Source of the DNA: a virus
Taxonomy: Duplodnaviria; Heunggongvirae; Uroviricota; Caudoviricetes
Reading direction: 5' to 3' (one strand)
Virus record (IMG/VR): IMGVR_UViG_2684622582_000008
Location: 1 to 13,574 of that record
Length of the DNA stretch: 13,574 nucleotides
In this document: positions 1-11,899 of the stretch, piece by piece
How the letters are laid out: the number at the start of each line of letters is the position of its first letter
How positions within the stretch are numbered: position 1 is the stretch's first letter
Notes under the pieces: generated by a model
Told to the model about the DNA's origin: nothing
What the model saw: only the letters and a program-made list of their open reading frames with translations
The model's database searches: none
Made by a program: the position numbers and the translations under genes

Positions 1-1038
1 CTACTTTTTCGACTCTTTATTCCACTGTAGCAAACCAGCGATATCCTTCTCGCCTTCGGCTTCTTTTAAGCGCCGTTGTTGTTCGGCAAACTGAACATAC
101 TCCGCCTGCGCTTTTTCATCGGCCATTTTCTTGCTGATTTTACCAGCGCCCTGTAGAACCTCTCGGTCGTTAAATTGCAGGAACTGATCCAGCTTATCCT
201 GCCAGTCGCGCAAAAAGACTTGCTGACGACGACGGGCCTGATCCTCGGCAAAGTCCAGCCACATATTAACCACGCGATTAAGTTCGCTGACCTCATCCTG
301 GGTGAGATAATTTTTTGCCACCGTCACGTCGCCCTTACGTACCTCTTCACCTTTATAACTGGTCAAGCCCATGTGCGGCTGGCTGGCATCTGCTCGTTTG
401 TGGATGAGTTCCGCAGCGGTATGCCCGGTACAGGCAAAATGCAGTTTATTCTGGATGGTTTGAAAAAATTGCGTGGTTTCTTTAAGCGATGGCTGATAGT
501 CGGCAGCTAAAGCAAAGATCTCCCGCACCCGCAAATATACCCGACGCTCGCTGGCGCGAATATCGCGGATGCGTTCAAGCATCTCATCAAAATAGTCGGG
601 CACAACCGATGAACCGACAGGCGGATTCTTCAGCCGCTCATCGTCCATCACAAAACCTTTGATCAGGTATTCCTGAAGCGTCTGGGTGGCCCACTGGCGG
701 AATTGCGTGCCTCGAGGCGAGCGAACGCGATAGCCGACAGCGAGAATGGCTTCGAGGTTGTAATGGTCTATCTCTCTGGAAACCTGACGTTTTCCTTCCT
801 GGCGAACTATCCGGAATTTCCGGATGGTTGAGTTTTGAACAAGTTCACCTTCGGAAAATATATTGATTAAATGTTCGTTAATAGTGCGAACATCTTTATC
901 GTACAGTTCAGCCATTGCCGCCTGGGATAACCAGATTGTGTCTGACTCAAAGCGACATTCAACACGCACTCTTCCGTCACCGCTGGCAAACATAATAAAC
1001 TCGCCTGCTGGGGGCTGGGTTAAGTCTTTGTCTGACAT
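1..1038 (-). CDS. rhuM: RhuM-family (virulence protein RhuM-like) protein, 345 aa; lies outside the satellite, next to the displaced selC 3' end
   Basis: Minus-strand ORF with TAG stop at 1-3. Preferred start is ATG at 1038 (MSDKDLTQ...), preceded by GGAGG 4 nt upstream. The longer ORF-track start at 1122 would run through the att repeat. Family call is from recalled similarity to RhuM proteins of selC-linked islands such as Salmonella SPI-3. Confidence 0.6.
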   Translation of the reverse strand: MSDKDLTQPPAGEFIMFASGDGRVRVECRFESDTIWLSQAAMAELYDKDVRTINEHLINIFSEGELVQNSTIRKFRIVRQEGKRQVSREIDHYNLEAILAVGYRVRSPRGTQFRQWATQTLQEYLIKGFVMDDERLKNPPVGSSVVPDYFDEMLERIRDIRASERRVYLRVREIFALAADYQPSLKETTQFFQTIQNKLHFACTGHTAAELIHKRADASQPHMGLTSYKGEEVRKGDVTVAKNYLTQDEVSELNRVVNMWLDFAEDQARRRQQVFLRDWQDKLDQFLQFNDREVLQGAGKISKKMADEKAQAEYVQFAEQQRRLKEAEGEKDIAGLLQWNKESKK

Positions 1039-1088
1039 GTCGCCTCCGAAGGAGTGTTGTTGACGTCGGGAGAGTTCAGGAGAGGCAT

Positions 1089-1111
1089 TTTGGCGGAAGA
1101 TCACAGGAGTC
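1089..1111. repeat. attR: displaced copy of the selC 3' end (direct repeat of 11803-11825)
   Basis: tggcggaagatcacaggagtc at 1091-1111 is identical to 11805-11825; the match extends 2 nt upstream (tt). Imperfect similarity continues into the element (caaaattgcc vs cgaacctgcc). Confidence 0.85.
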
Positions 1112-1233
1112 AAAATTGCCATATAACCACTTGATTCAAATCGTTTATATTTTTCTATTCTAATTCATTTATACACATCCTTATACATATAATATCTATC
1201 GATTAATTGTTACACGTATCTTCACGCACGTTA

Positions 1234-1540
1234 ACTCAGGAAAAAAATTTTTTTTCGGAAGAACTGTTCACACTGTTCACCTTTCTGTTTTCTCCTTTTA
1301 TTTCAGTTTGATAGGTGGTGAATAATGGGTGAAGGGTGAACATTCGATTCTTCACCTCCGGCATTCTGCCGGTGTGACTCATACCGGTGATTAATCCTCC
1401 GCACTGAAATCACTCAGGAAGAAAAAAGTTTTTTTGATTTGATTGTTCACACTGTTCACCTTTCGTTTTTCTCTTTTAATTTCAGTGTGATAACGGGTGA
1501 ATATACGGTGAAGGGTGAACAGTGGATTGTTCACCTTCGG
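1234..1540. repeat. crr-like cis replication region: two ~128-bp direct repeats (1234-1361 and 1412-1540), each with several TGTTCACC/GGTGAACA type-I-like iterons
   Basis: The two segments align almost base for base (actcaggaa...ttcacactgttcacctttc...ggtgaagggtgaaca...ttcacc). Octamers such as tgttcaca (1265-1272), tgttcacc (1274-1281) and ggtgaaca (1335-1342) are present. Position directly downstream of alpha matches P4 crr. Confidence 0.75.
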
Positions 1541-1554
1541 GGGATTCAGGGATG

Positions 1555-1578
1555 AAAAAAGACCGGCAGATGCCGGTC
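1555..1578 (-). terminator. Rho-independent terminator downstream of alpha
   Basis: Stem gaccggc/gccggtc (1561-1567 and 1572-1578) with a 4-nt loop. On the minus strand it is followed by a run of six T (complement of aaaaaa at 1555-1560), 17 nt past the alpha stop. Confidence 0.55.
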
Positions 1579-1594
1579 AGATGAGTCATGAGGG

Positions 1595-3928
1595 TCAGGT
1601 TGTTGCAGGGTCGTCACATTTTGGCAGCCAGTCGCCGTAGCTTTCCTCTTTCAGCGTCAGGTTGGTCTGTATCCCCTGTTTGGTATGGCGCTTCTCGTAA
1701 TTCAGCCCGTATTCCTTCAGCATCACCGGCAGCCCCAGCCCGAACATTTTCAGACTGAGTACATTCCGGTAGCCGTTTGCCTCCATGTAGGCCAGATAGG
1801 CGTGATAGAGGTATTTACGGTAATTACGCGGGATGATACTGGCGTTCCCCATATACATGCCGCTGGTCTGCGGCAGGGTTTCCAGATAGCCGATAAAATC
1901 AAACGTCGGGTCGGCATCCCGTTTGATGTTCAGTGCCTCGTCTGAGTTCTGCTGGGACTGAAGCAGTGACCGGGCGAGCATCGGGTCGCTGAATTTCTGC
2001 ATCAGGTGACGCACGATGACCGCCAGCTCGCGGGTGATTTTGTCCTTAAGCTGCGGGTCGCGCTCCTGCGGGGCTATCTGTTCCGGGAAGTGAATAATCA
2101 CCCGCCGGCGTGACACGCCGCCGCTGCGGTCGGTGAAGCGCATCGGGTTATTGTTCACGGCCAGAATCACCGCCGGGATATGCGTGGAGTACGCATCCCG
2201 GTATTTCGGGTCCACGGACACCGCATCGCCGCCGGTGATGGCCTTGAGTCCGGCACCGTCGCCGCTCCATTTTTCCTGGTCCGGCAGGCGTATCAGTGAG
2301 AAGCCAGTTAACGCGGCACGTTCACGCGGGGATTCCAGCGTCTCAATGGTGGCCGATGTGGCGTTATCCTCCCCGGCCAGCAGGGTGGCGATTTCGGCCA
2401 TGATACTTTTGCCGCTGCCGCCGGGACCGGTCACCTCCAGAAAGAGCTGCCAGTCGTAGCGGTTTGCCAGCACCATAAACAGTGCGGCCAGAATCACGTC
2501 GCGTTTTTCCGCACGGCCACCGGCGGCACGGTCAAGCCAGCGCCAGAACGCGGGGGCGTGGTTTTCCAGCGTTTCCCCTTCCACCGGCGGGGTGAAATCC
2601 ACATCGCACAGGGTGCGCATCCAGTGTGACGGACTGTGCAGGTGGAACGTGCCGTTCTGCGTGTCGAGCACGCCGTTACGAAAGCCAATCAGGCGGCGGG
2701 AGGGGGCTTCCTGCTGCGGAATAATCAGCTTCAGGGTGTCCACCACGGAGGCCACCTTCCCGGAGGAGAACGGCGCGCGCAGACGCTGAAACAGCCCGGC
2801 CACATCCCGGGCAAAGTCCTGTGGCGGCAGCATCTTCCAGACACCATTTTCATAGCGGGACAGAAGCTGGCCGTTGGCATCGACCGCGAGCGCCTCGCCG
2901 TAATGCTCATAGATACGCATGGCCTTTTCGCTGGTACTCATGGCGGAAAACTCCGCTTCGCTCATGGTGTCGAACGGGCTTTCAGCCGGTGGCCGGATGG
3001 CATCGTAAATGGCCTTACGGGTGGCCTCCCCGCCGTACTGCGTGAAGGCATCATTCCAGTCACCGAAGACCGGCGGCAGGGCAACAACGCCCTCACACGC
3101 ATCTGCGGCTGCGGCGGCTTTTTTCTGGCCGTCACCGCTGAGGTCACGGTCAGCAGCAAGGACAATCTGACAGGCCGGATGCTTCTGCCGGGCAAGGCTG
3201 GCCAGAGAAAGGAGGTTCACGGAAGAAAGCGCCACCATCACCGTTTCACCGGTCAGGTGATGTACGGTAAGTGCGGTCGCGTATCCCTCCGCTATCCACA
3301 GACGTTTTCCGGCCTGATTCTGTCCTTCAAGGATGTGACAGGTGCCCCTGACCTGTCCGCCTTTCAGGGTGCGCTTACGGCCGTCAGCACTGATTAACTG
3401 AAGGTTAACCAGTTCGCCGCTGTCGTCATACAGTGGCACCACAAGGTCACCGGCACGCCAGCTCACGCCACCGGCTCTGTGTGTGCCGGTCAGCATCCGG
3501 CATTCCCGGCCGGGAAAGCCCTTGCGGGTCAGGTAGGCGTTACCGGTTCCGGGACGGGTTTTCGCCATCAGGGTTTGTGCCAGTGCGGCGGCGTTCTTCC
3601 GGGCAGCGTCTGTTTCAGCAACGGCGGCGGCCGTCACTGCCGGGTCAGCCGGGGGCAGGCTGCCGGTCACGGCAGCCACCTTTGTGGCCGCGTCGGACGG
3701 GGAGACACCAAACACCTTTTCAACCAGTTTCAGGCCGTCACCGGCACCACACTGATTGCAGTACCAGGTGCCGCGCCCCTCCCTGTCATCAAAACGGAAG
3801 CGGTCACTCCCGCCACAGACCGGACAGGGCTGATGACGGTTTTTCAGCACCTGAATCCCCAGCGCCGGGAGGATACGCGGCCAGTGGCCGAGCGCATGGC
3901 TGACGGTGGCGGTTACGTTCATTTTCAT
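1595..3928 (-). CDS. alpha: P4 alpha-type primase-helicase (zinc-binding primase N-terminus, central/C-terminal P-loop helicase), 777 aa
   Basis: ATG at 3928 with GGAG upstream. N-terminal CPVCGG...WYCNQCG zinc-binding motif; Walker A GPGGSGKS; length equals P4 alpha (777 aa); flanked by crr iterons. Confidence 0.85.
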   Translation of the reverse strand: MKMNVTATVSHALGHWPRILPALGIQVLKNRHQPCPVCGGSDRFRFDDREGRGTWYCNQCGAGDGLKLVEKVFGVSPSDAATKVAAVTGSLPPADPAVTAAAVAETDAARKNAAALAQTLMAKTRPGTGNAYLTRKGFPGRECRMLTGTHRAGGVSWRAGDLVVPLYDDSGELVNLQLISADGRKRTLKGGQVRGTCHILEGQNQAGKRLWIAEGYATALTVHHLTGETVMVALSSVNLLSLASLARQKHPACQIVLAADRDLSGDGQKKAAAAADACEGVVALPPVFGDWNDAFTQYGGEATRKAIYDAIRPPAESPFDTMSEAEFSAMSTSEKAMRIYEHYGEALAVDANGQLLSRYENGVWKMLPPQDFARDVAGLFQRLRAPFSSGKVASVVDTLKLIIPQQEAPSRRLIGFRNGVLDTQNGTFHLHSPSHWMRTLCDVDFTPPVEGETLENHAPAFWRWLDRAAGGRAEKRDVILAALFMVLANRYDWQLFLEVTGPGGSGKSIMAEIATLLAGEDNATSATIETLESPRERAALTGFSLIRLPDQEKWSGDGAGLKAITGGDAVSVDPKYRDAYSTHIPAVILAVNNNPMRFTDRSGGVSRRRVIIHFPEQIAPQERDPQLKDKITRELAVIVRHLMQKFSDPMLARSLLQSQQNSDEALNIKRDADPTFDFIGYLETLPQTSGMYMGNASIIPRNYRKYLYHAYLAYMEANGYRNVLSLKMFGLGLPVMLKEYGLNYEKRHTKQGIQTNLTLKEESYGDWLPKCDDPATT

Positions 3929-3942
3929 GGTGTTGTTCTCCT

Positions 3943-4263
3943 TCAGTGCAGTACCGGCGCTTTTATGTGACGGGCACAGAGTTCATCCATCACAACCAGC
4001 CCGAGAAAGGACAGCGACGGCGCGGCCTTCAGGGGGCCGGATTCCATTAAATCTTCCAGCAGGGCACAGGCTATCTGACGCCCTTTTTCCTCACCGTGCT
4101 GGCGCAGATAAAAGCCTTCCAGCTCAGCGGCGATGGCCGCCTCCAGTGATTCAAGGGTGAGATGCGGGTAGCGGTGCTGACGTTCGCACACGGTCAGCCA
4201 GGCACAGGCGACAGCGCGACGGTAAAGGGCTGCGCGTAAGACGGGCGGTAAGGGGGTTTTCAT
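3943..4263 (-). CDS. cnr: P4 orf106-like small protein (possibly Cnr copy-number regulator), 106 aa
   Basis: ATG at 4263 preceded by GGGAGG. Ends 14 nt upstream of the alpha start, so it is in the operon. Size and position match P4 orf106; the cnr name is from memory and tentative. Confidence 0.5.
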
Positions 4264-4398
4264 TTGTTTTCCTCCCTGTGACAGATGACTGCATTCCGTG
4301 CCGGTTGCATTAACTGATAAGGCATATCTGCGTCTCCTGAAGACGTGCGTATCCCTGCGCGAATACGCACATTTAATTTTTCGGGTGTCGTTTTTTAA

Positions 4399-4854
4399 TT
4401 ACAGATAATTGCGGTAACTGTTATCCGGGGTGATTTCCGGGTCAGGCTCCGTGCGGGAAATTTCCCGCCATTCCCGCGCCACCGGTGCCGCCCGGCTGGC
4501 CGGAACAGTGTCCTGCGGGTAAATATCCAGATATTTCTCCCGCCATTTCTGTAATTCCGGGTCTCCGGCCATTTCTTTCAGTACCGCATGCCGGTTTACG
4601 GGGCTGCGTTTGAACAGGTCAGGACGGTCACAGGTAAATTCCCGCAGAAAACGCCCCAGCGGGATGTCTGTGGTGCGCCCGTCAGTGAGGATACGCACAA
4701 GGATACTGAATTTTCGGCGGTACGGGTTCCAGACAATTTCCGGACAGCGGTACGGCATTTCCCACGGAATACCGTCTTCCAGAATGCCGACCACGGCCAC
4801 ATCGGGAAAACCGGCAGAACGGTAAATCTCACCGGGCTGGGGAAAATCAAACAT
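4399..4854 (-). CDS. P4 orf151-like hypothetical protein, 151 aa
   Basis: ATG at 4854; start overlaps the stop of the upstream epsilon-like ORF by 8 nt (coupling). Size and position match P4 orf151. Confidence 0.6.
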   Translation of the reverse strand: MFDFPQPGEIYRSAGFPDVAVVGILEDGIPWEMPYRCPEIVWNPYRRKFSILVRILTDGRTTDIPLGRFLREFTCDRPDLFKRSPVNRHAVLKEMAGDPELQKWREKYLDIYPQDTVPASRAAPVAREWREISRTEPDPEITPDNSYRNYL

Positions 4855-5134
4855 GTGTCCTGTCTCCCCGGTCTTTCTGCTGGGCGAGAAAATCGCGGCA
4901 CAGGCCTTTGGCTTTCAGCTCATTCAGCACAAAATCAATATCTTCATTCAGGTAGCTGAAAATATGCGGAATGTAGAGCTGATGCAGGCCGGAGAGTTCA
5001 CGGTGAATCAAATCACCCCCAACAAACCGGGATACTGCGCTGGCGCGGTTGAGCTTATGGTAAGCCTCAATGCTGAGGTGTTCACGGGCGTCATGACGCG
5101 CTGAGACGGTCTGAGGGGCTTTTTTATTACGCAC
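4847..5134 (-). CDS. epsilon: Epsilon-like protein (P2-type helper derepressor), 95 aa if GTG start at 5134
   Basis: In-frame GTG at 5134 preceded by GGAGG (revcomp of cctcc at 5141-5145). Overlaps the stop of the upstream 65-aa ORF (GTGCGTAA). Alternative in-frame ATG starts at 5179 or 5215 cannot be excluded. Function inferred from position and size only. Confidence 0.5.
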
Positions 5135-5324
5135 GGGACACCTCCACCACCGGCAGACGGGCAGCAAGGGAGAGCACATAGTCACGGACAAGGGAACGGC
5201 GGGCGCTGCGTTCATCACCGGCGACGGTGCGAAGCATGCAGATACGGGGATGACGGTCTGCGCGACGGACAGCCGCAAACACAAAGACAAATTCAGGGTG
5301 TGAAGGGGTAAGGGTTGTAGCCAT
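5127..5324 (-). CDS. Small hypothetical protein (65 aa), first well-supported ORF after the leader
   Basis: ATG at 5324 with AAGGAGA 7 nt upstream; TAA stop at 5127. It is the C-terminal part of a longer open frame (5127-5762) that I do not accept as one gene. Confidence 0.45.
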
Positions 5325-5355
5325 AAGGCAGTCTCCTTCGAGTAGCAAATAACTG

Positions 5356-5619
5356 CTATCGCCGGAGTTCCTACGCTCGATGGCGATAGCCCAGACGGGG
5401 GTAGGAATACCGGCCTCGAAGAATACCGGCCAGCCCGGAGGCTGCCCCGCCTGAGCTACCATTGACTCAGTGGCATAACATGCGATTGCGAACAGGATCA
5501 TACCTGCACGGCAAACCACACGCCACACCATAATCTGGCGCTCTGTGGCGTTGATTGCGACACAAAAAAAGACGCATGGCGCGTCATATGTCGCCTTCGA
5601 GTTACACGGGTTCCTACGC
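5356..5619 (-). ncRNA. Candidate P4-type immunity leader (cI-like RNA with seqA/seqB/seqC-like elements)
   Basis: No RBS-supported ORF between the vis stop and 5324. gttcctacgc occurs twice (5367-5376 and 5610-5619); ggggtaggaat at 5397-5407 is near-complementary (8/10) to it. Hairpin ctatcgcc/ggcgatag (5356-5363 and 5382-5389). Order on the leftward transcript (copy, complement, copy) matches the P4 seqA-cI(seqB)-seqC layout. Confidence 0.35.
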
Positions 5620-5648
5620 CCGGCTGCCGATTTTGCGGCAGCGGAAAA

Positions 5649-5678
5649 ACTATATCCGCAAATGCCGGAAAAAGGCAA
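5649..5678 (-). promoter_or_regulatory. Candidate constitutive leftward promoter (PLE-like)
   Basis: On the minus strand: TTGCCT (-35; plus 5673-5678) and TATAGT (-10; plus 5649-5654) with 18-bp spacing, just downstream of vis. Confidence 0.3.
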
Positions 5679-5713
5679 GCCAGAAAAAGGGAGTTTTTGC
5701 AGAGCGGGCATCA

Positions 5714-5980
5714 TCATGCGTCGTACCCCCGTTTGCGTCCGGCAATGCGCCCGGCCATCCATGCGGTGATTTCAGAGTGCAGCCAGGCCACATTTTTACC
5801 GCCAAGACTCACCTGCGGCGGAAATTCCCCCTTACGGATGAGTTCGTAGATGGTCGAGCGTGACAGGCCGCACAGGTGCATCACTTCCGGCAGACGTAAA
5901 AAACGCTCCTGCGTGATGTCCGGCAGCGGCATCAGTGGCGTCACAGGGGCGGGAGACGGGGAAGAAAAAACAGCTTGCAT
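5714..5980 (-). CDS. vis: AlpA/Vis-family helix-turn-helix regulator/excisionase (P4 orf88 vis-like), 88 aa
   Basis: ATG at 5980 with GAGGT upstream. Segment [29 protein letters not shown]...[10 protein letters not shown] is typical of AlpA-family proteins. Length equals P4 orf88 (vis). Confidence 0.75.
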
Positions 5981-6081
5981 CGGGCTACCTCGTTAATGTC
6001 CATACAGCACCGGATAAGTCCGTCCGGCTTCGGGTAGCGCTTTATTTTGTGAATATTTTCAGCAGACGCAACAGGGGGATT

Positions 6082-6099
6082 TGTTCAGGCTGCCTTACA
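6082..6099 (-). promoter_or_regulatory. Delta/Ogr-type activator site (TGT-N12-ACA) of a leftward late promoter (PLL-like) upstream of vis
   Basis: tgt tcaggctgcctt aca at 6082-6099, centred about 110 bp upstream of the vis start. Confidence 0.5.
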
Positions 6100-6257
6100 A
6101 TGACTGTGTGTTTTTTATCCATCTGGACTGGAAGGGTCTCAAAGGGTTCTGAAGGACCTGGAATTTTTTATAGTGAAATACAAATTGTTTTTTCTTATTT
6201 ATTTCAGTGAATTAATAAAAATAAACAGTAGTAAACAGCACAAAAAGTCCATGAGCG

Positions 6258-6361
6258 GGTGAACAGTGGTGAACAGACGGTGAACAGTCATTACTGCGAT
6301 TGTTCACCCTTTAACTTACTGTATTACTTATCTTTTTTATTAAGGTGAACAGAGGTGAACA
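6258..6361. repeat. ori-like cluster of six type-I-like iterons (GGTGAACA/TGTTCACC)
   Basis: ggtgaaca at 6258-6265, 6268-6275, 6279-6286, 6344-6351 and 6354-6361; inverted tgttcacc at 6301-6308. Same octamer as in the crr-like repeats about 4.8 kb away. Confidence 0.7.
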
Positions 6362-6440
6362 GTAAAATATAAAAAAACAAACAGTAAGCCGGTTTTTCCT
6401 GCGACCTTTTCCTGGCTTGCCGGTGTGAGGATGAGTCTCC

Positions 6441-6458
6441 TGTGTCAGGGCTGGCACA
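6441..6458 (+). promoter_or_regulatory. Delta/Ogr-type activator site (TGT-N12-ACA) of Psid late promoter
   Basis: tgt gtcagggctggc aca at 6441-6458, centred about 80 bp upstream of the sid ATG (6531). Confidence 0.55.
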
Positions 6459-6530
6459 TCTGCAATGCGTCGTGTTGTTGTCCGGTGTACGTCACAATTT
6501 TCTTAACCTGAAGTGACGAGGAGCCGGAAA

Positions 6531-7265
6531 ATGTCTGACAACACCATCCCTGAATATCTGCAACCCGCGCTGGCACAACTGGAAAAGGCCAGAGCCGCCC
6601 ATCTTGAGAACGCCCGCCTGATGGATGAGACCGTCACGGCCATTGAACGGGCAGAGCAGGAAAAAAATGCGCTGGCGCAGGCCGACGGAAACGACGCTGA
6701 CGACTGGCGCACGGCCTTTCGTGCAGCCGGTGGTGTCCTGAGCGACGAGCTGAAACAGCGCCACATTGAGCGCGTGGCACGCCGGGAGCTGGTACAGGAA
6801 TATGACAATCTGGCCGTGGTGCTGAATTTCGAACGTGAACGCCTGAAAGGGGGGTGTGACAGCACGGCCACCGCCTACCGGAAGGCACATCATCACCTTC
6901 TGAGTCTGTATGCAGAGCATGAGCTGGAACACGCCCTGAATGAAACCTGTGAGGCGCTTGTCCGGGCAATGCATCTGAGCATTCTGGTACAGGAAAATCC
7001 GCTCGCCAACACCACCGGCCATCAGGGCTACGTCGCACCGGAAAAGGCTGTCATGCAGCAGGTGAAATCATCGCTGGAACAGAAAATTAAACAGATGCAA
7101 ATCAGCCTCACCGGCGAGCCGGTTCTCCGGCTGACCGGACTGTCAGCGGCAACACTCCCGCACATGGATTATGAGGTGGCAGGCACACCGGCACAGCGCA
7201 AGGTGTGGCAGGACAAAATAGACCAGCAGGGAGCAGAGCTTAAGGCCAGAGGACTGCTGTCATGA
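6531..7265 (+). CDS. sid: Sid-like capsid size-determination (external scaffold) protein, 244 aa
   Basis: ATG at 6531 with GAGGAG 8 nt upstream (the ORF-track GTG at 6513 has no RBS). Length equals P4 Sid; first gene of the sid-delta-psu operon. Confidence 0.8.
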   Translation: MSDNTIPEYLQPALAQLEKARAAHLENARLMDETVTAIERAEQEKNALAQADGNDADDWRTAFRAAGGVLSDELKQRHIERVARRELVQEYDNLAVVLNFERERLKGGCDSTATAYRKAHHHLLSLYAEHELEHALNETCEALVRAMHLSILVQENPLANTTGHQGYVAPEKAVMQQVKSSLEQKIKQMQISLTGEPVLRLTGLSAATLPHMDYEVAGTPAQRKVWQDKIDQQGAELKARGLLS

Positions 7266-7762
7266 TTTACTGCCCGTCGTGTGGACATGTTGCTCACACC
7301 CGTCGCGCACATTTCATGGACGATGGCACCAAGATAATGATTGCACAGTGCCGGAATATTTATTGCTCTGCGACATTTGAAGCGAGTGAAAGCTTTTTCT
7401 CTGACAGTAAAGATTCAGGAATGGAATACATTTCAGGCAAACAGAGATACCGCGATTCACTGACGTCAGCCTCCGGCAGTATGAAACGCCCGAAAAGAAT
7501 GCTTGTTACCGGATATTGTTGTCGGAGATGTAAAGGCCTTGCACTGTCAAGAACATCGCGGCGTCTGTCTCAGGAAGTCACCGAGCGTTTTTATGTGTGC
7601 ACGGATCCGGGCTGTGGTCTGGTGTTTAAAACGCTTCAGACCATCAACCGTTTCATTGTCCGCCCGGTCACGCCGGACGAACTGGCAGAAAGCCTGCATG
7701 AAAAACAGGAACTGCCGCCAGTACGCTTAAAAACACAATCATATTCGCTGCGTCTGGAATGA
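7262..7762 (+). CDS. delta: Delta-like late transcriptional activator (tandem Ogr-type zinc-finger domains), 166 aa
   Basis: ATG overlaps the sid stop (ATGA). CPSCGH...C..C and a second C..CC..C...C..C cysteine cluster are consistent with duplicated Ogr-like zinc fingers. Length equals P4 Delta. Confidence 0.8.
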   Translation: MIYCPSCGHVAHTRRAHFMDDGTKIMIAQCRNIYCSATFEASESFFSDSKDSGMEYISGKQRYRDSLTSASGSMKRPKRMLVTGYCCRRCKGLALSRTSRRLSQEVTERFYVCTDPGCGLVFKTLQTINRFIVRPVTPDELAESLHEKQELPPVRLKTQSYSLRLE

Positions 7763-7835
7763 GGGCTGCCGGTTAACACCGGCCGTCGCCGCACACCGTA
7801 TTTTTATTCTTCAGCATGATGAGAAAGAGATAACG

Positions 7836-8408
7836 ATGGAAAGCACAGCCTTACAGCAGGCCTTTGACACCTGTCAGAATAACAAAGCAGCATGGCTGCA
7901 ACGCAAAAATGAGCTGGCAGCGGCCGAACAGGAATATCTGCGGCTTCTGTCAGGAGAAGGCAGAAACGTCAGTCGCCTGGACGAATTACGCAATATTATC
8001 GAAGTCAGAAAATGGCAGGTGAATCAGGCCGCTGGTCGTTATATTCGTTCGCATGAAGCCGTTCAGCACATCAGCATCCGCGACCGGCTGAATGATTTTA
8101 TGCAGCAGCACGGCACAGCACTGGCGGCGGCACTGGCACCGGAGCTGATGGGCTACAGTGAGCTGACGGCCATTGCCCGAAACTGTGCCATACAGCGTGC
8201 CACAGATGCCCTGCGTGAAGCCCTCCTGTCCTGGCTTGCGAAGGGGGAAAAAATTAATTATTCCGCACAGGATAGCGACATTTTAACGACCATCGGATTC
8301 AGGCCTGACGCGGCTTCGGTGGATGACAGCCGTGAAAAATTCACCCCTGCGCAGAACATGATTTTTTCGCGTAAAAGTGCGCAACTGGCATCACGTCAGT
8401 CTGTGTAA
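7836..8408 (+). CDS. psu: Psu-like polarity suppression protein (Rho antagonist / capsid decoration), 190 aa
   Basis: Third gene of the late operon; length equals P4 Psu; N-terminus MESTALQQAFDTCQNN matches my recollection of P4 Psu. Confidence 0.8.
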   Translation: MESTALQQAFDTCQNNKAAWLQRKNELAAAEQEYLRLLSGEGRNVSRLDELRNIIEVRKWQVNQAAGRYIRSHEAVQHISIRDRLNDFMQQHGTALAAALAPELMGYSELTAIARNCAIQRATDALREALLSWLAKGEKINYSAQDSDILTTIGFRPDAASVDDSREKFTPAQNMIFSRKSAQLASRQSV

Positions 8409-8444
8409 AATTCCCCGAAAATCCGCCTGTTTTTACTGAAAAAA

Positions 8445-8483
8445 GCCATGCATCGATAAGGTGCATGGCTTTGCATGCGTTTT
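8445..8483 (+). terminator. Candidate terminator after psu
   Basis: Stem gccatgca/tgcatggc (8445-8452 and 8462-8469) followed by a T-rich tract tttgcatgcgtttt. Confidence 0.4.
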
Positions 8484-8572
8484 CCTGCCTCATTTTCTGC
8501 AGACCGCGCCATTCCCGGCGCGGCCTGAGCGTGTCAGTGAAACTGCATTAAAACCGCCCCGCAAAGCGGGCG

Positions 8573-8678: not shown

Positions 8679-10439
8679 TCAGTTTTTATTTATGAATGAA
8701 ATACTGTTCTCTAGTGACTCCTTTACTTTTTTCACGGTGTTTTTTAACTCAATAATGGCTCCGCGACGAAAAGAAATTGAAAGTTCATTCAGGTAAGAAT
8801 TTAAGAACTCATCTAGTTTTTTTAGATGAGGTAGCTCGTTAGATAGATAATCGCGAAGGTTAGAAAAGTTGTATACAGATAATAGATGGTCTGAAAACAT
8901 TTGAATATCGTAAATGGACCAATTATGTTGTATGGCACTTATGATTAAATTTACATCTAAAGTTTCCAGTGCTTTAAACTTGAAATCTGAATGATATATA
9001 TCCATATCGATAGTGGTCCAACCATCGTTAACCATCTTGTTTTTTAATTCTTCTATTCTTTCTCTTTTTGTTATGTTAATATATTTGTCAACAAAAAAGT
9101 TATATAAATTATCTCCATCATGTTTTAGCATATTTAGTGGGATGTCATTGATGTTTGGCACGGTTTTATGAAAATATGATTTTATTTCATCGTCACTGAA
9201 GCTAAGTTTGCTTTGATTAATGGTGTCTTCATCTAGGGTGTTTATATGAGGTATATATTCATATTTTGAGAGTCTAATATAGTTATTCGTGGCAATTAAC
9301 CATGTAGATAGATCTGGAGAATTTGATTTTAAAATTGTTTTTATTATTTCTTCCTGATAGTCATGTTCAGATATGTTATATAACTCAGGTCTTAATAATC
9401 CAGCATAATCATTTCTCTTGGGAGGGGTATTGTCAGTAAAAACATATGGAAGAATGTCTTTATGCGAAATTGCATTAAAACAATATGGAGCCATTTTATT
9501 ATTATAGTTTTTGTATGCACTAATACTTAATAAATTGTTTTCTTCTTCACTTATTTCATTGTGTTCGTTTTCTGGTGTGGTTGAAATTGTTTTGAGTGAT
9601 GATGAAACAAAATTTTCACGAAACTCATTTTCCTTATAGTTGAATTTTTCCTTAAGTATTATATGTGCACACAATGAGCTTACTAAATTTTTAATATCTA
9701 TATCAGAGATATCTCTGTCTTGCGTTGTTTGTTCAAACAACGGTAGGAGTTTTACAATGACTCTATTAATGATTCGGATATTTGTTTCTTCGAAATCTAT
9801 AATTACTTGCTTAATGATGTCTCTATAATTTTCTTGTATTTTCTCAAGCTTTTTATCTAAAATGTCAGAAAGATTGTTTATAGAAAAGTATACCTCGTCG
9901 CTAATAACTTTTTCTTTATGATTCAATACCTCATTGCTTTGTTTTGAAAAATTACCAACTAAAATATAGTCTAACATCTTGTTATTTTGATAATTTTGTA
10001 AGCAAAAGGTTGCTATTTCATCTCGCAAATTTTGAGGTATACGTTCTAGATCATCAATAATAAAAACTCCTGAAAGATCTTTTAATACATAATGTTGCAT
10101 TGCCCCTGCAAATGTTGATATTATTTTTCCAGTAAACTTCCCAGTGCTTTCTTCTTTAGTAATAGCTGTGGTTACATTTGATGCTAACTCTGTAATTATT
10201 TCTATATCGGGTGGATTCTCTAAATAAGTTACACTCAACACCTTGTCTTTAAAATCTTGCAAACTATTTAATCCAAGCACAGATATATAAAATTGAGTTT
10301 TGTTGGAATAATATTGCTTAAATTCATTTTGAAGGAAGAATGTTTTACCAACCCCCCACTCACCGTTTAACAAAATTAGACCTTCACGTTTTTCATTTAG
10401 TAATCTAATTAAAACAGATATTATTGTGTTTTTATCCAT
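8679..10439 (-). CDS. KAP-family-like P-loop NTPase with large uncharacterised C-terminal region, 586 aa; candidate anti-phage defence cargo in the P4 hotspot
   Basis: ATG at 10439 with AAGGAG upstream. Walker A GEWGVGKT (GxWGxGKT type) and Walker B VFIIDDLER (hhhhDDL[DE]R type) in the first ~135 aa. Very AT-rich compared with the P4 backbone. Occupies the gop/beta/cII position between cos and int. Confidence 0.7.
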   Translation of the reverse strand: MDKNTIISVLIRLLNEKREGLILLNGEWGVGKTFFLQNEFKQYYSNKTQFYISVLGLNSLQDFKDKVLSVTYLENPPDIEIITELASNVTTAITKEESTGKFTGKIISTFAGAMQHYVLKDLSGVFIIDDLERIPQNLRDEIATFCLQNYQNNKMLDYILVGNFSKQSNEVLNHKEKVISDEVYFSINNLSDILDKKLEKIQENYRDIIKQVIIDFEETNIRIINRVIVKLLPLFEQTTQDRDISDIDIKNLVSSLCAHIILKEKFNYKENEFRENFVSSSLKTISTTPENEHNEISEEENNLLSISAYKNYNNKMAPYCFNAISHKDILPYVFTDNTPPKRNDYAGLLRPELYNISEHDYQEEIIKTILKSNSPDLSTWLIATNNYIRLSKYEYIPHINTLDEDTINQSKLSFSDDEIKSYFHKTVPNINDIPLNMLKHDGDNLYNFFVDKYINITKRERIEELKNKMVNDGWTTIDMDIYHSDFKFKALETLDVNLIISAIQHNWSIYDIQMFSDHLLSVYNFSNLRDYLSNELPHLKKLDEFLNSYLNELSISFRRGAIIELKNTVKKVKESLENSISFINKN

Positions 10440-11642: not shown

Positions 11643-11804
11643 GTGTATAACTGAAAACTACGTATAAAAAATCTATACACATTACTATACATATTTTTCG
11701 CGGATTCAGGGAGATGAACTCGGACTATTACGGATAAGATGATTATTCATCGTATTGAATACAAAGGGTTTTATGGAGCGTCTCGGAACTGGCTGGATGA
11801 AGTT

Positions 11805-11899
11805 TGGCGGAAGATCACAGGAGTCGAACCTGCCCGGGACCGCTGGCGGCCCCAACTGGATTTGAAGTCCAGCCGCCTCACCGGAGACGACGATCTTCC
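11805..11899 (-). tRNA. selC: tRNA-Sec (selenocysteine tRNA), intact; its 3' end forms attL
   Basis: The reverse complement of 11805-11899 reads GGAAGATCGTCGTCTCCGGTGAGGCGGCTGGACTTCAAATCCAGTTGGGGCCGCCAGCGGTCCCGGGCAGGTTCGACTCCTGTGATCTTCCGCCA, matching E. coli selC as recalled, including the long variable arm and CCA end. Confidence 0.9.

Follow-up and report, generated by a model that had tools for sequence, protein, structure and literature searches.

The DNA analysed here, called the window hereafter, is a stretch of 13,574 nucleotides of a virus in which two palindromic TGT-N12-ACA sites stand on either side of a cluster of origin-like iterons, and the question raised by this locus is what these dyads are for. 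An earlier note had read them as binding sites of Ogr/Delta-type activators, each positioned to drive one of two divergent units, leftward into vis and the left operon and rightward into sid, delta and psu. Perfect TGT-N12-ACA matches are present exactly as claimed at 6082-6099 (TGTTCAGGCTGCCTTACA) and 6441-6458 (TGTGTCAGGGCTGGCACA), and a third perfect dyad, which the note did not list, is found 38 bp downstream of the second at 6479-6496 (TGTCCGGTGTACGTCACA). The genes are laid out as described too, with vis running leftward and sid, delta and psu rightward. On the evidence set out below, the dyads are very probably the activator-binding sites of two divergent late promoters of a P4-type satellite, namely PLL for the leftward unit and Psid for the rightward one.

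In order to place the dyads in their genetic context, the window was aligned by megablast with phage records. Window positions 1242-8572 show 97.4% identity to positions 4291-11624 of P4 (X51522), from crr to the right cos end, and the P4 annotation can be transferred directly to the window. In the ORF listing and the Pfam scan, alpha (1595-3928) as well as the orf106, orf151, epsilon and ash/cI regions are found on the minus strand. The same strand carries vis (orf88, 5714-5980), the first gene of the PLL transcript, which encodes an AlpA-family HTH protein of 88 aa (PF05930, E 3.9e-21) with 97.7% identity to P4 ORF88. The plus strand carries sid at 6531-7265 (244 aa, capsid size determination, 99% identity to P4 Sid), delta at 7262-7762 (166 aa) and psu at 7836-8408 (190 aa, PF07455, E 1.3e-88). 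The delta gene is intact and its product, 98% identical to P4 Delta, displays two Ogr/Delta zinc-finger domains (PF04606, two stretches, E 6.9e-22). Furthermore, Rfam matches on the minus strand to the C4 antisense RNA, which is the P4 CI immunity RNA (5379-5466), to isrK and to the a1/b1 target sites (targets at 5565-5655) confirm the presence of a predicted intact P4-type RNA immunity system.

In contrast, the integrase, att site and defence cargo of P4 differ from those of the window. Right of cos the window shows a gene for an AAA_22/KAP P-loop NTPase of 586 aa (8679-10439, minus strand) and one for an integrase of 390 aa, both absent from P4; tRNA-Sec comes next after these two genes, at 11805-11899. 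The prophage ends (att) can be recognised by a direct repeat of 23 bp, found at 1089-1111 and 11803-11825, and according to this repeat the satellite occupies selC (tRNA-Sec) whereas P4 uses the leuX site. The left att repeat falls within the first codons of a RhuM-family ORF (1-1122, minus strand) which leaves the window. As for the 586-aa NTPase, it sits in the cos-integrase defence hotspot, replacing P4 gop/beta/cII, and is likely to be an anti-phage cargo gene. Judged by its sequence, the window is an integrated P4-like satellite prophage at tRNA-Sec, in which a P4-type core is joined to a different integration and cargo module.

The motif TGT-N12-ACA fixes just 6 bases, and one explanation of the dyads would be that they are functionless chance palindromes. 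Over the whole window 8 matches are counted against 3.08 expected, a number reached in 3 of 200 shuffles, and the five matches at 80, 1601, 4386, 5589 and 11035 look random and are compatible with chance (~3 expected). Moreover, in one relative of the satellite (L009) two tandem iterons create such a dyad by accident. However, the 550-bp spacer between vis and sid contains three dyads where 0.27 would be expected from 20,000 dinucleotide-preserving shuffles (P(>=3) = 0.0024), and all three are identical or nearly so to their P4 counterparts, found at 9133-9150, 9493-9510 and 9531-9548 in the P4 sequence compared. P4 also has a counterpart of the match at 1601, while those at 4386 and 5589 are imperfect in P4 and those at 80 and 11035 lie beyond the aligned stretch. 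P4 and the window do not differ anywhere in the stretch that begins with Psid dyad I and ends with the sid ATG. The PLL dyad shows a single internal substitution (C for T in the window), and a 1-bp deletion in the G run that separates this dyad from its core promoter brings the two 1 bp closer together in the window.

The dyads fit the consensus to which the earlier note had assigned them, as TGT-N12-ACA is cited for the Ogr-dependent late promoters of P2 with reference to Christie and Calendar and to Julien and Calendar (PMC3931495). In the P2 GenBank record (AF063097), the centres of the activator sites lie 55.5 (PO), 56 (PP), 55.5 (PV) and ~57.5 (PF) bp upstream of the annotated starts. Perfect TGT-N12-ACA was sought at the annotated P2 activator sites (L025, 3057-3087, 10239-10266 and 17555-17583) and none of them is perfect: PO/PP and PF display TGT-N12-CCA, and PV displays TGT-N11-ACA. 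Given these imperfect sites, the motif alone is a loose criterion. The published consensus is an idealisation, looser than the note implied, and the perfect P4-type dyads are its best examples and not typical ones. The P2 late promoters PP/PO, PV and PF are otherwise similar to those of the window, with a partial dyad at 55.5-57.5 bp, a poor -35 and activation by an Ogr-family zinc-finger protein, but in P2 one site serves the divergent PP/PO pair whereas the window has separate sites, 359 bp apart, with the origin between them.

No sigma-70 consensus promoter was found in 5900-6600 on either strand, which fits activator-dependent transcription from the putative PLL and Psid. Promoters of the Ogr/Delta-activated class need the RNA polymerase alpha subunit as well as Delta or Ogr. 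Among the features of the Ogr/Delta-activated late promoters, the dyad, a core without sigma-70 consensus and a cognate C4 zinc-finger gene are all present; positional conservation was observed for Psid site I, while the perfect PLL site is restricted to the P4 clade. The gene layout, the near-identity to P4, the cited consensus, the spacing annotated in P2 and the lack of a sigma-70 consensus promoter together support the interpretation given in the earlier note.

On the rightward side, the Psid region displays two perfect dyads on the plus strand, site I at 6441-6458 (counterpart of P4 9493-9510) and site II at 6479-6496 (counterpart of P4 9531-9548), the latter lying over the -10 hexamer. 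This -10-like hexamer, CACAAT (6493-6498, plus strand), was assigned by sequence reading and conservation and has no usable -35, the sequence at the -35 position being TCGTGT with a 2/6 match to the consensus. The start predicted from the hexamer is near 6505; counted from there, dyad I would be centred at -55.5 and the centre of dyad II would fall at -17.5.

To compare this arrangement among P4-like relatives, species-representative genomes were searched with a Sid profile, giving 22 loci, 21 of them with a Sid only 57-66% identical, from Klebsiella, Raoultella, Citrobacter, Enterobacter, Mangrovibacter, Scandinavium, Tatumella and other genera. The Psid comparison covers the 23 loci with enough upstream sequence, the window and P4 included. 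Site I is perfect in 23/23, and in each of them its centre is found 43.5 nt upstream of CA[CG]AAT, even though the interior of the site is variable and the distance to the sid ATG ranges from 76.5 to 82.5 nt. The extended pattern TGTGyCA-N4-TGsCACA is kept in 22 of these loci, the exception being L015 with TACCACA. This fixed register, combined with the conservation of the site, gives strong phylogenetic support to the predicted function of site I and to the promoter register. It also weighs against a chance origin of the dyads: statistical excess and conservation together exclude that reading, to which we assign a negligible probability. Site II keeps its register throughout the 20 divergent loci, where it reads TGT-N12-AGA, and is perfect in the P4 clade only; it overlaps both the -10 hexamer and the block GTTGTTGT, which may be enough to account for its conservation.

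The TGTG and CACA ends of site I superficially resemble the half-sites TGTGA and TCACA, so that a host global regulator such as CRP, and not Delta or Ogr, might be the protein bound by the dyads. In the CRP consensus TGTGA-N6-TCACA, though, TGT and ACA are 10 nt apart, whereas each of the three dyads, like the orthologous Psid sites of 23/23 loci, has a spacing of 12 nt. Furthermore, a cognate Ogr/Delta-family gene is found directly downstream in every locus. A CRP-binding site was rejected on the difference between the 12-nt and the 10-nt spacing, and we regard binding of a host global regulator as most improbable.

On the leftward side, the probable PLL activator site is the perfect dyad at 6082-6099, read on the minus strand and counterpart of P4 9133-9150. 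Downstream of it on the same strand, a -35-like hexamer TTGCGT (6066-6071, by sequence reading) lies within a conserved cTTGTTGC block and is followed, after a 16-nt spacer, by a -10-like hexamer CAAAAT (6044-6049). Both CACAAAATA at the latter position and TTGTTGC are kept in at least 80% of the 17 loci compared for PLL. The start predicted from the -10-like hexamer is near 6035-6037. The dyad centre (6090.5) is 41.5 nt upstream of CAAAAT and would stand at about -53.5 from this start in the window and at -54.5 in P4. Given the -10-like hexamers chosen, the position at about -53.5 and not -55 is due to the one G deleted relative to P4.

Among the relatives, conservation is high for the core block cTTGTTGC...AAAATATTCACAAAATA as well as for the vis leader, and at least 80% of the 17 loci have TTGT in the register of P4, whereas the perfect N12 dyad occurs in the window, P4 and L003 only. 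In the 14 divergent loci with vis, 8 show TGT-N13-ACA and 6 show no such dyad. One could therefore propose that Psid alone is the conserved Delta/Ogr promoter, that PLL is driven in most P4-like satellites chiefly by other inputs, such as helper Cox and Vis, and that the P4 clade has specialised in having a perfect dyad at PLL. The conserved -35/-10 block and the conserved phased repeats upstream are in line with such a proposal. Nevertheless, it concerns the relatives, since the element of the window has the P4-type perfect dyad, and the TTGT kept in register in most loci speaks against it. We consider it possible, though not probable, for most other P4-like lineages, and it leaves the reading of this element unaffected.

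The vis 5' leader (5981-6037, minus strand) is nearly invariant across genera. Its 5' CUACCC is able to pair with GGUAG of the vis ribosome-binding region, with 12 predicted pairs. No compensatory changes or covariation were found in the predicted fold of this leader, as its sequence hardly varies. The leader may serve to control translation, or it may be an operator for Vis.

Between the two promoters lie the origin iterons GGTGAACAG, found at 6258, 6268, 6279, 6344 and 6354 with an inverted copy at 6301-6308. Following the P4 annotation, they are the P4 ori type I iterons, six copies of which one is inverted, spanning 6258-6363 in the window. The annotated 'ori type 1 repeats' of P4 (9310-9413) also comprise six copies, identical in sequence to those of the window. 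The cluster characteristic of the P4 ori, made up of type 1 octamer/nonamer repeats and placed between orf88 (vis) and sid, is present. The cluster is located between the PLL dyad and the Psid dyads as the note had described. The note's further statement that replication and late-transcription control are interleaved holds for the geometry, with the iterons between both promoters; the evidence here bears on this arrangement in space and not on any functional coupling.

The proximity of the iterons raises another explanation for the PLL dyad, which could be mainly a degenerate seventh ori iteron bound by the alpha primase-helicase. The first six bases of the dyad, TGTTCA, are the complement of TGAACA, the core of the iterons, so that dyad and iterons have a 6-nt core in common, and the dyad is 160 bp from the iteron cluster. 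Against this, no type 1 repeat is annotated at that position in P4, and divergent satellites have the same iterons (in L009, GTGAACAG) while their PLL upstream element, TGTTGTGTGG, is not iteron-like and retains the TTGT register. We rejected the seventh iteron because TGTTCA is not conserved in relatives with the same iterons, and such a role of the dyad appears highly unlikely. An activator site of PLL remains the preferred reading of the dyad at 6082-6099.

The account of the flanks in the earlier note was accurate for the dyads and the iterons, but it overlooked an element responsive to Cox that is situated between the PLL dyad and the iteron cluster and in which the window differs from P4. 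P2 Cox has been reported to bind upstream of PLL, the consensus of the P2 Cox box being TTAAA(G/C)NC(A/C) (PMC3936717). In P4 the 'ori type 2 repeats' (9176-9205) contain three phased TTAAAG boxes that fit this consensus. As a positive control, the best match of the P4 block in the P2 genome was the Pc promoter/Cox operator region. In the window the P4 block has given way to GGACTGGAAGGGTCTCAAAGGGTTCTGAAGGACC, and the place of the P4 'type 2 ori repeats' is taken by 10-nt phased repeats AAGGG/AAGGG/AAGGA at 6132, 6142 and 6152 (block 6125-6166, plus strand). A helically phased chain of at least three TTAAA(G/C)NC(A/C) boxes is present in P4 (locus 4890, 4900 and 4910) and absent from the window. 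Conversely, AAGG[AG] gives a single cluster in the window and none in P4 or P2. No phased cluster was found with AA[AG]GG[AG], a badly defined motif.

Within the regulatory 5 kb of WPhi, the best local match of the window block is GGACTGGAAGGG-CT-CAAA--GTTCTGA with a score of 33. The shuffle mean is 20.6 and none of 1500 shuffles reached 33, while the maximum in a separate run of 200 shuffles was 35 (P ~0.001). This match adjoins the repeats of the WPhi attP P' arm on their immediate upstream side, in the presumed Cox-site region, as the Cox site annotated in P2 attP is found at that place. P4 is reported not to be activated by WPhi Cox, whose recognition repeats are different (PMC5009727). 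However, WPhi was not recovered when the variant block was compared with all phages in an unbiased blastn search. Among 5426 E. coli genomes the window-type allele was counted in 275 and the P4-type allele in 439, so that both are common. Sampled co-occurrence with a WPhi-type cox gave no support for a pairing with the window allele, as 1/60 window-type genomes vs 5/60 P4-type genomes, several of them clonal O145, were among the 60 WPhi-cox genomes listed. This outcome and that of the blastn search speak against a reading specific to WPhi.

In addition, the more distant loci (L004-L024) display lineage-specific direct repeats, phased at 10-11 nt, ~100-170 nt upstream of the vis ATG and adjoining the position of the PLL dyad; examples are TTTGCCA/ATGGCCA/TTTACCA, three copies of TGGCAAACGC and two copies of ATGCACT. 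These may provide each lineage with its own array of binding sites for Cox, Apl or Vis. In P4, helper Cox would act through the P2 Cox boxes upstream of PLL and so derepress the satellite. It is conceivable, albeit doubtful at present, that 6125-6166 is a swapped helper-specificity module which retunes the satellite to WPhi-type helpers, each P4-like lineage having its own 'Cox code'.

The distribution of the dyads was also compared with the architecture of Delta. A Delta of 166 aa with two fingers is found in the P4 clade only, and the 20 other loci encode a protein of 67-87 aa with one CxxC finger. The short-Delta satellites share with the window the vis-ori-sid-delta layout, the perfect Psid site I with its spacing and the -10-like hexamers. 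They differ from it at the other two positions, where their PLL dyad is N13 or absent and their site II is TGT-N12-AGA. The perfect PLL dyad and the perfect Psid dyad II thus co-occur only with a two-finger Delta, an association that amounts to one evolutionary contrast and is a correlation only.

Taken together, these observations point to a mechanism in which the satellite Delta or the helper Ogr, both small zinc-finger proteins, would bind TGT-N12-ACA about 55 bp upstream of the start and would recruit RNA polymerase to promoters without a usable -35. PLL, with its site at 6082-6099, would fire leftward into vis and the left operon, and Psid, with its site at 6441-6458, rightward into sid-delta-psu. 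Because delta lies inside the Psid operon, it would activate its own operon in a positive feedback. An activator placed on dyad II, over the -10, would more plausibly limit Psid at high activator levels than stimulate it. Binding, the start sites and this negative role of site II are what we infer in this explanation, and the -55 placement is deduced from homology and from the -10-like hexamers. The Psid and PLL starts were reportedly mapped by Dale in 1986 and Deho in 1988, and Julien and Calendar in 1995 and Reiter in 1998 are said to have footprinted Delta at -55 of both promoters and, in Psid, also at -18. The predicted dyad placements match these reports.

The feature is hence already known, the PLL and Psid activator sites being textbook P4 biology in a 97%-identical relative. 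Little is at stake in this respect, since the best-studied regulatory region of P4 has been re-identified in a prophage with 97% identity to it, and the value for this element lies in a correct annotation, in which three activator dyads are assigned to two late promoters with the origin lying between these. For the family, the fixed register of the upstream Psid dyad makes it a very reliable marker by which P4-like satellites of different genera can be recognised, and the additional perfect dyads go along with the duplicated, two-finger Delta; both points are modest. The swap of the Cox block, if true, would matter more, as it concerns the way in which satellites discern the helper phage that has become active.
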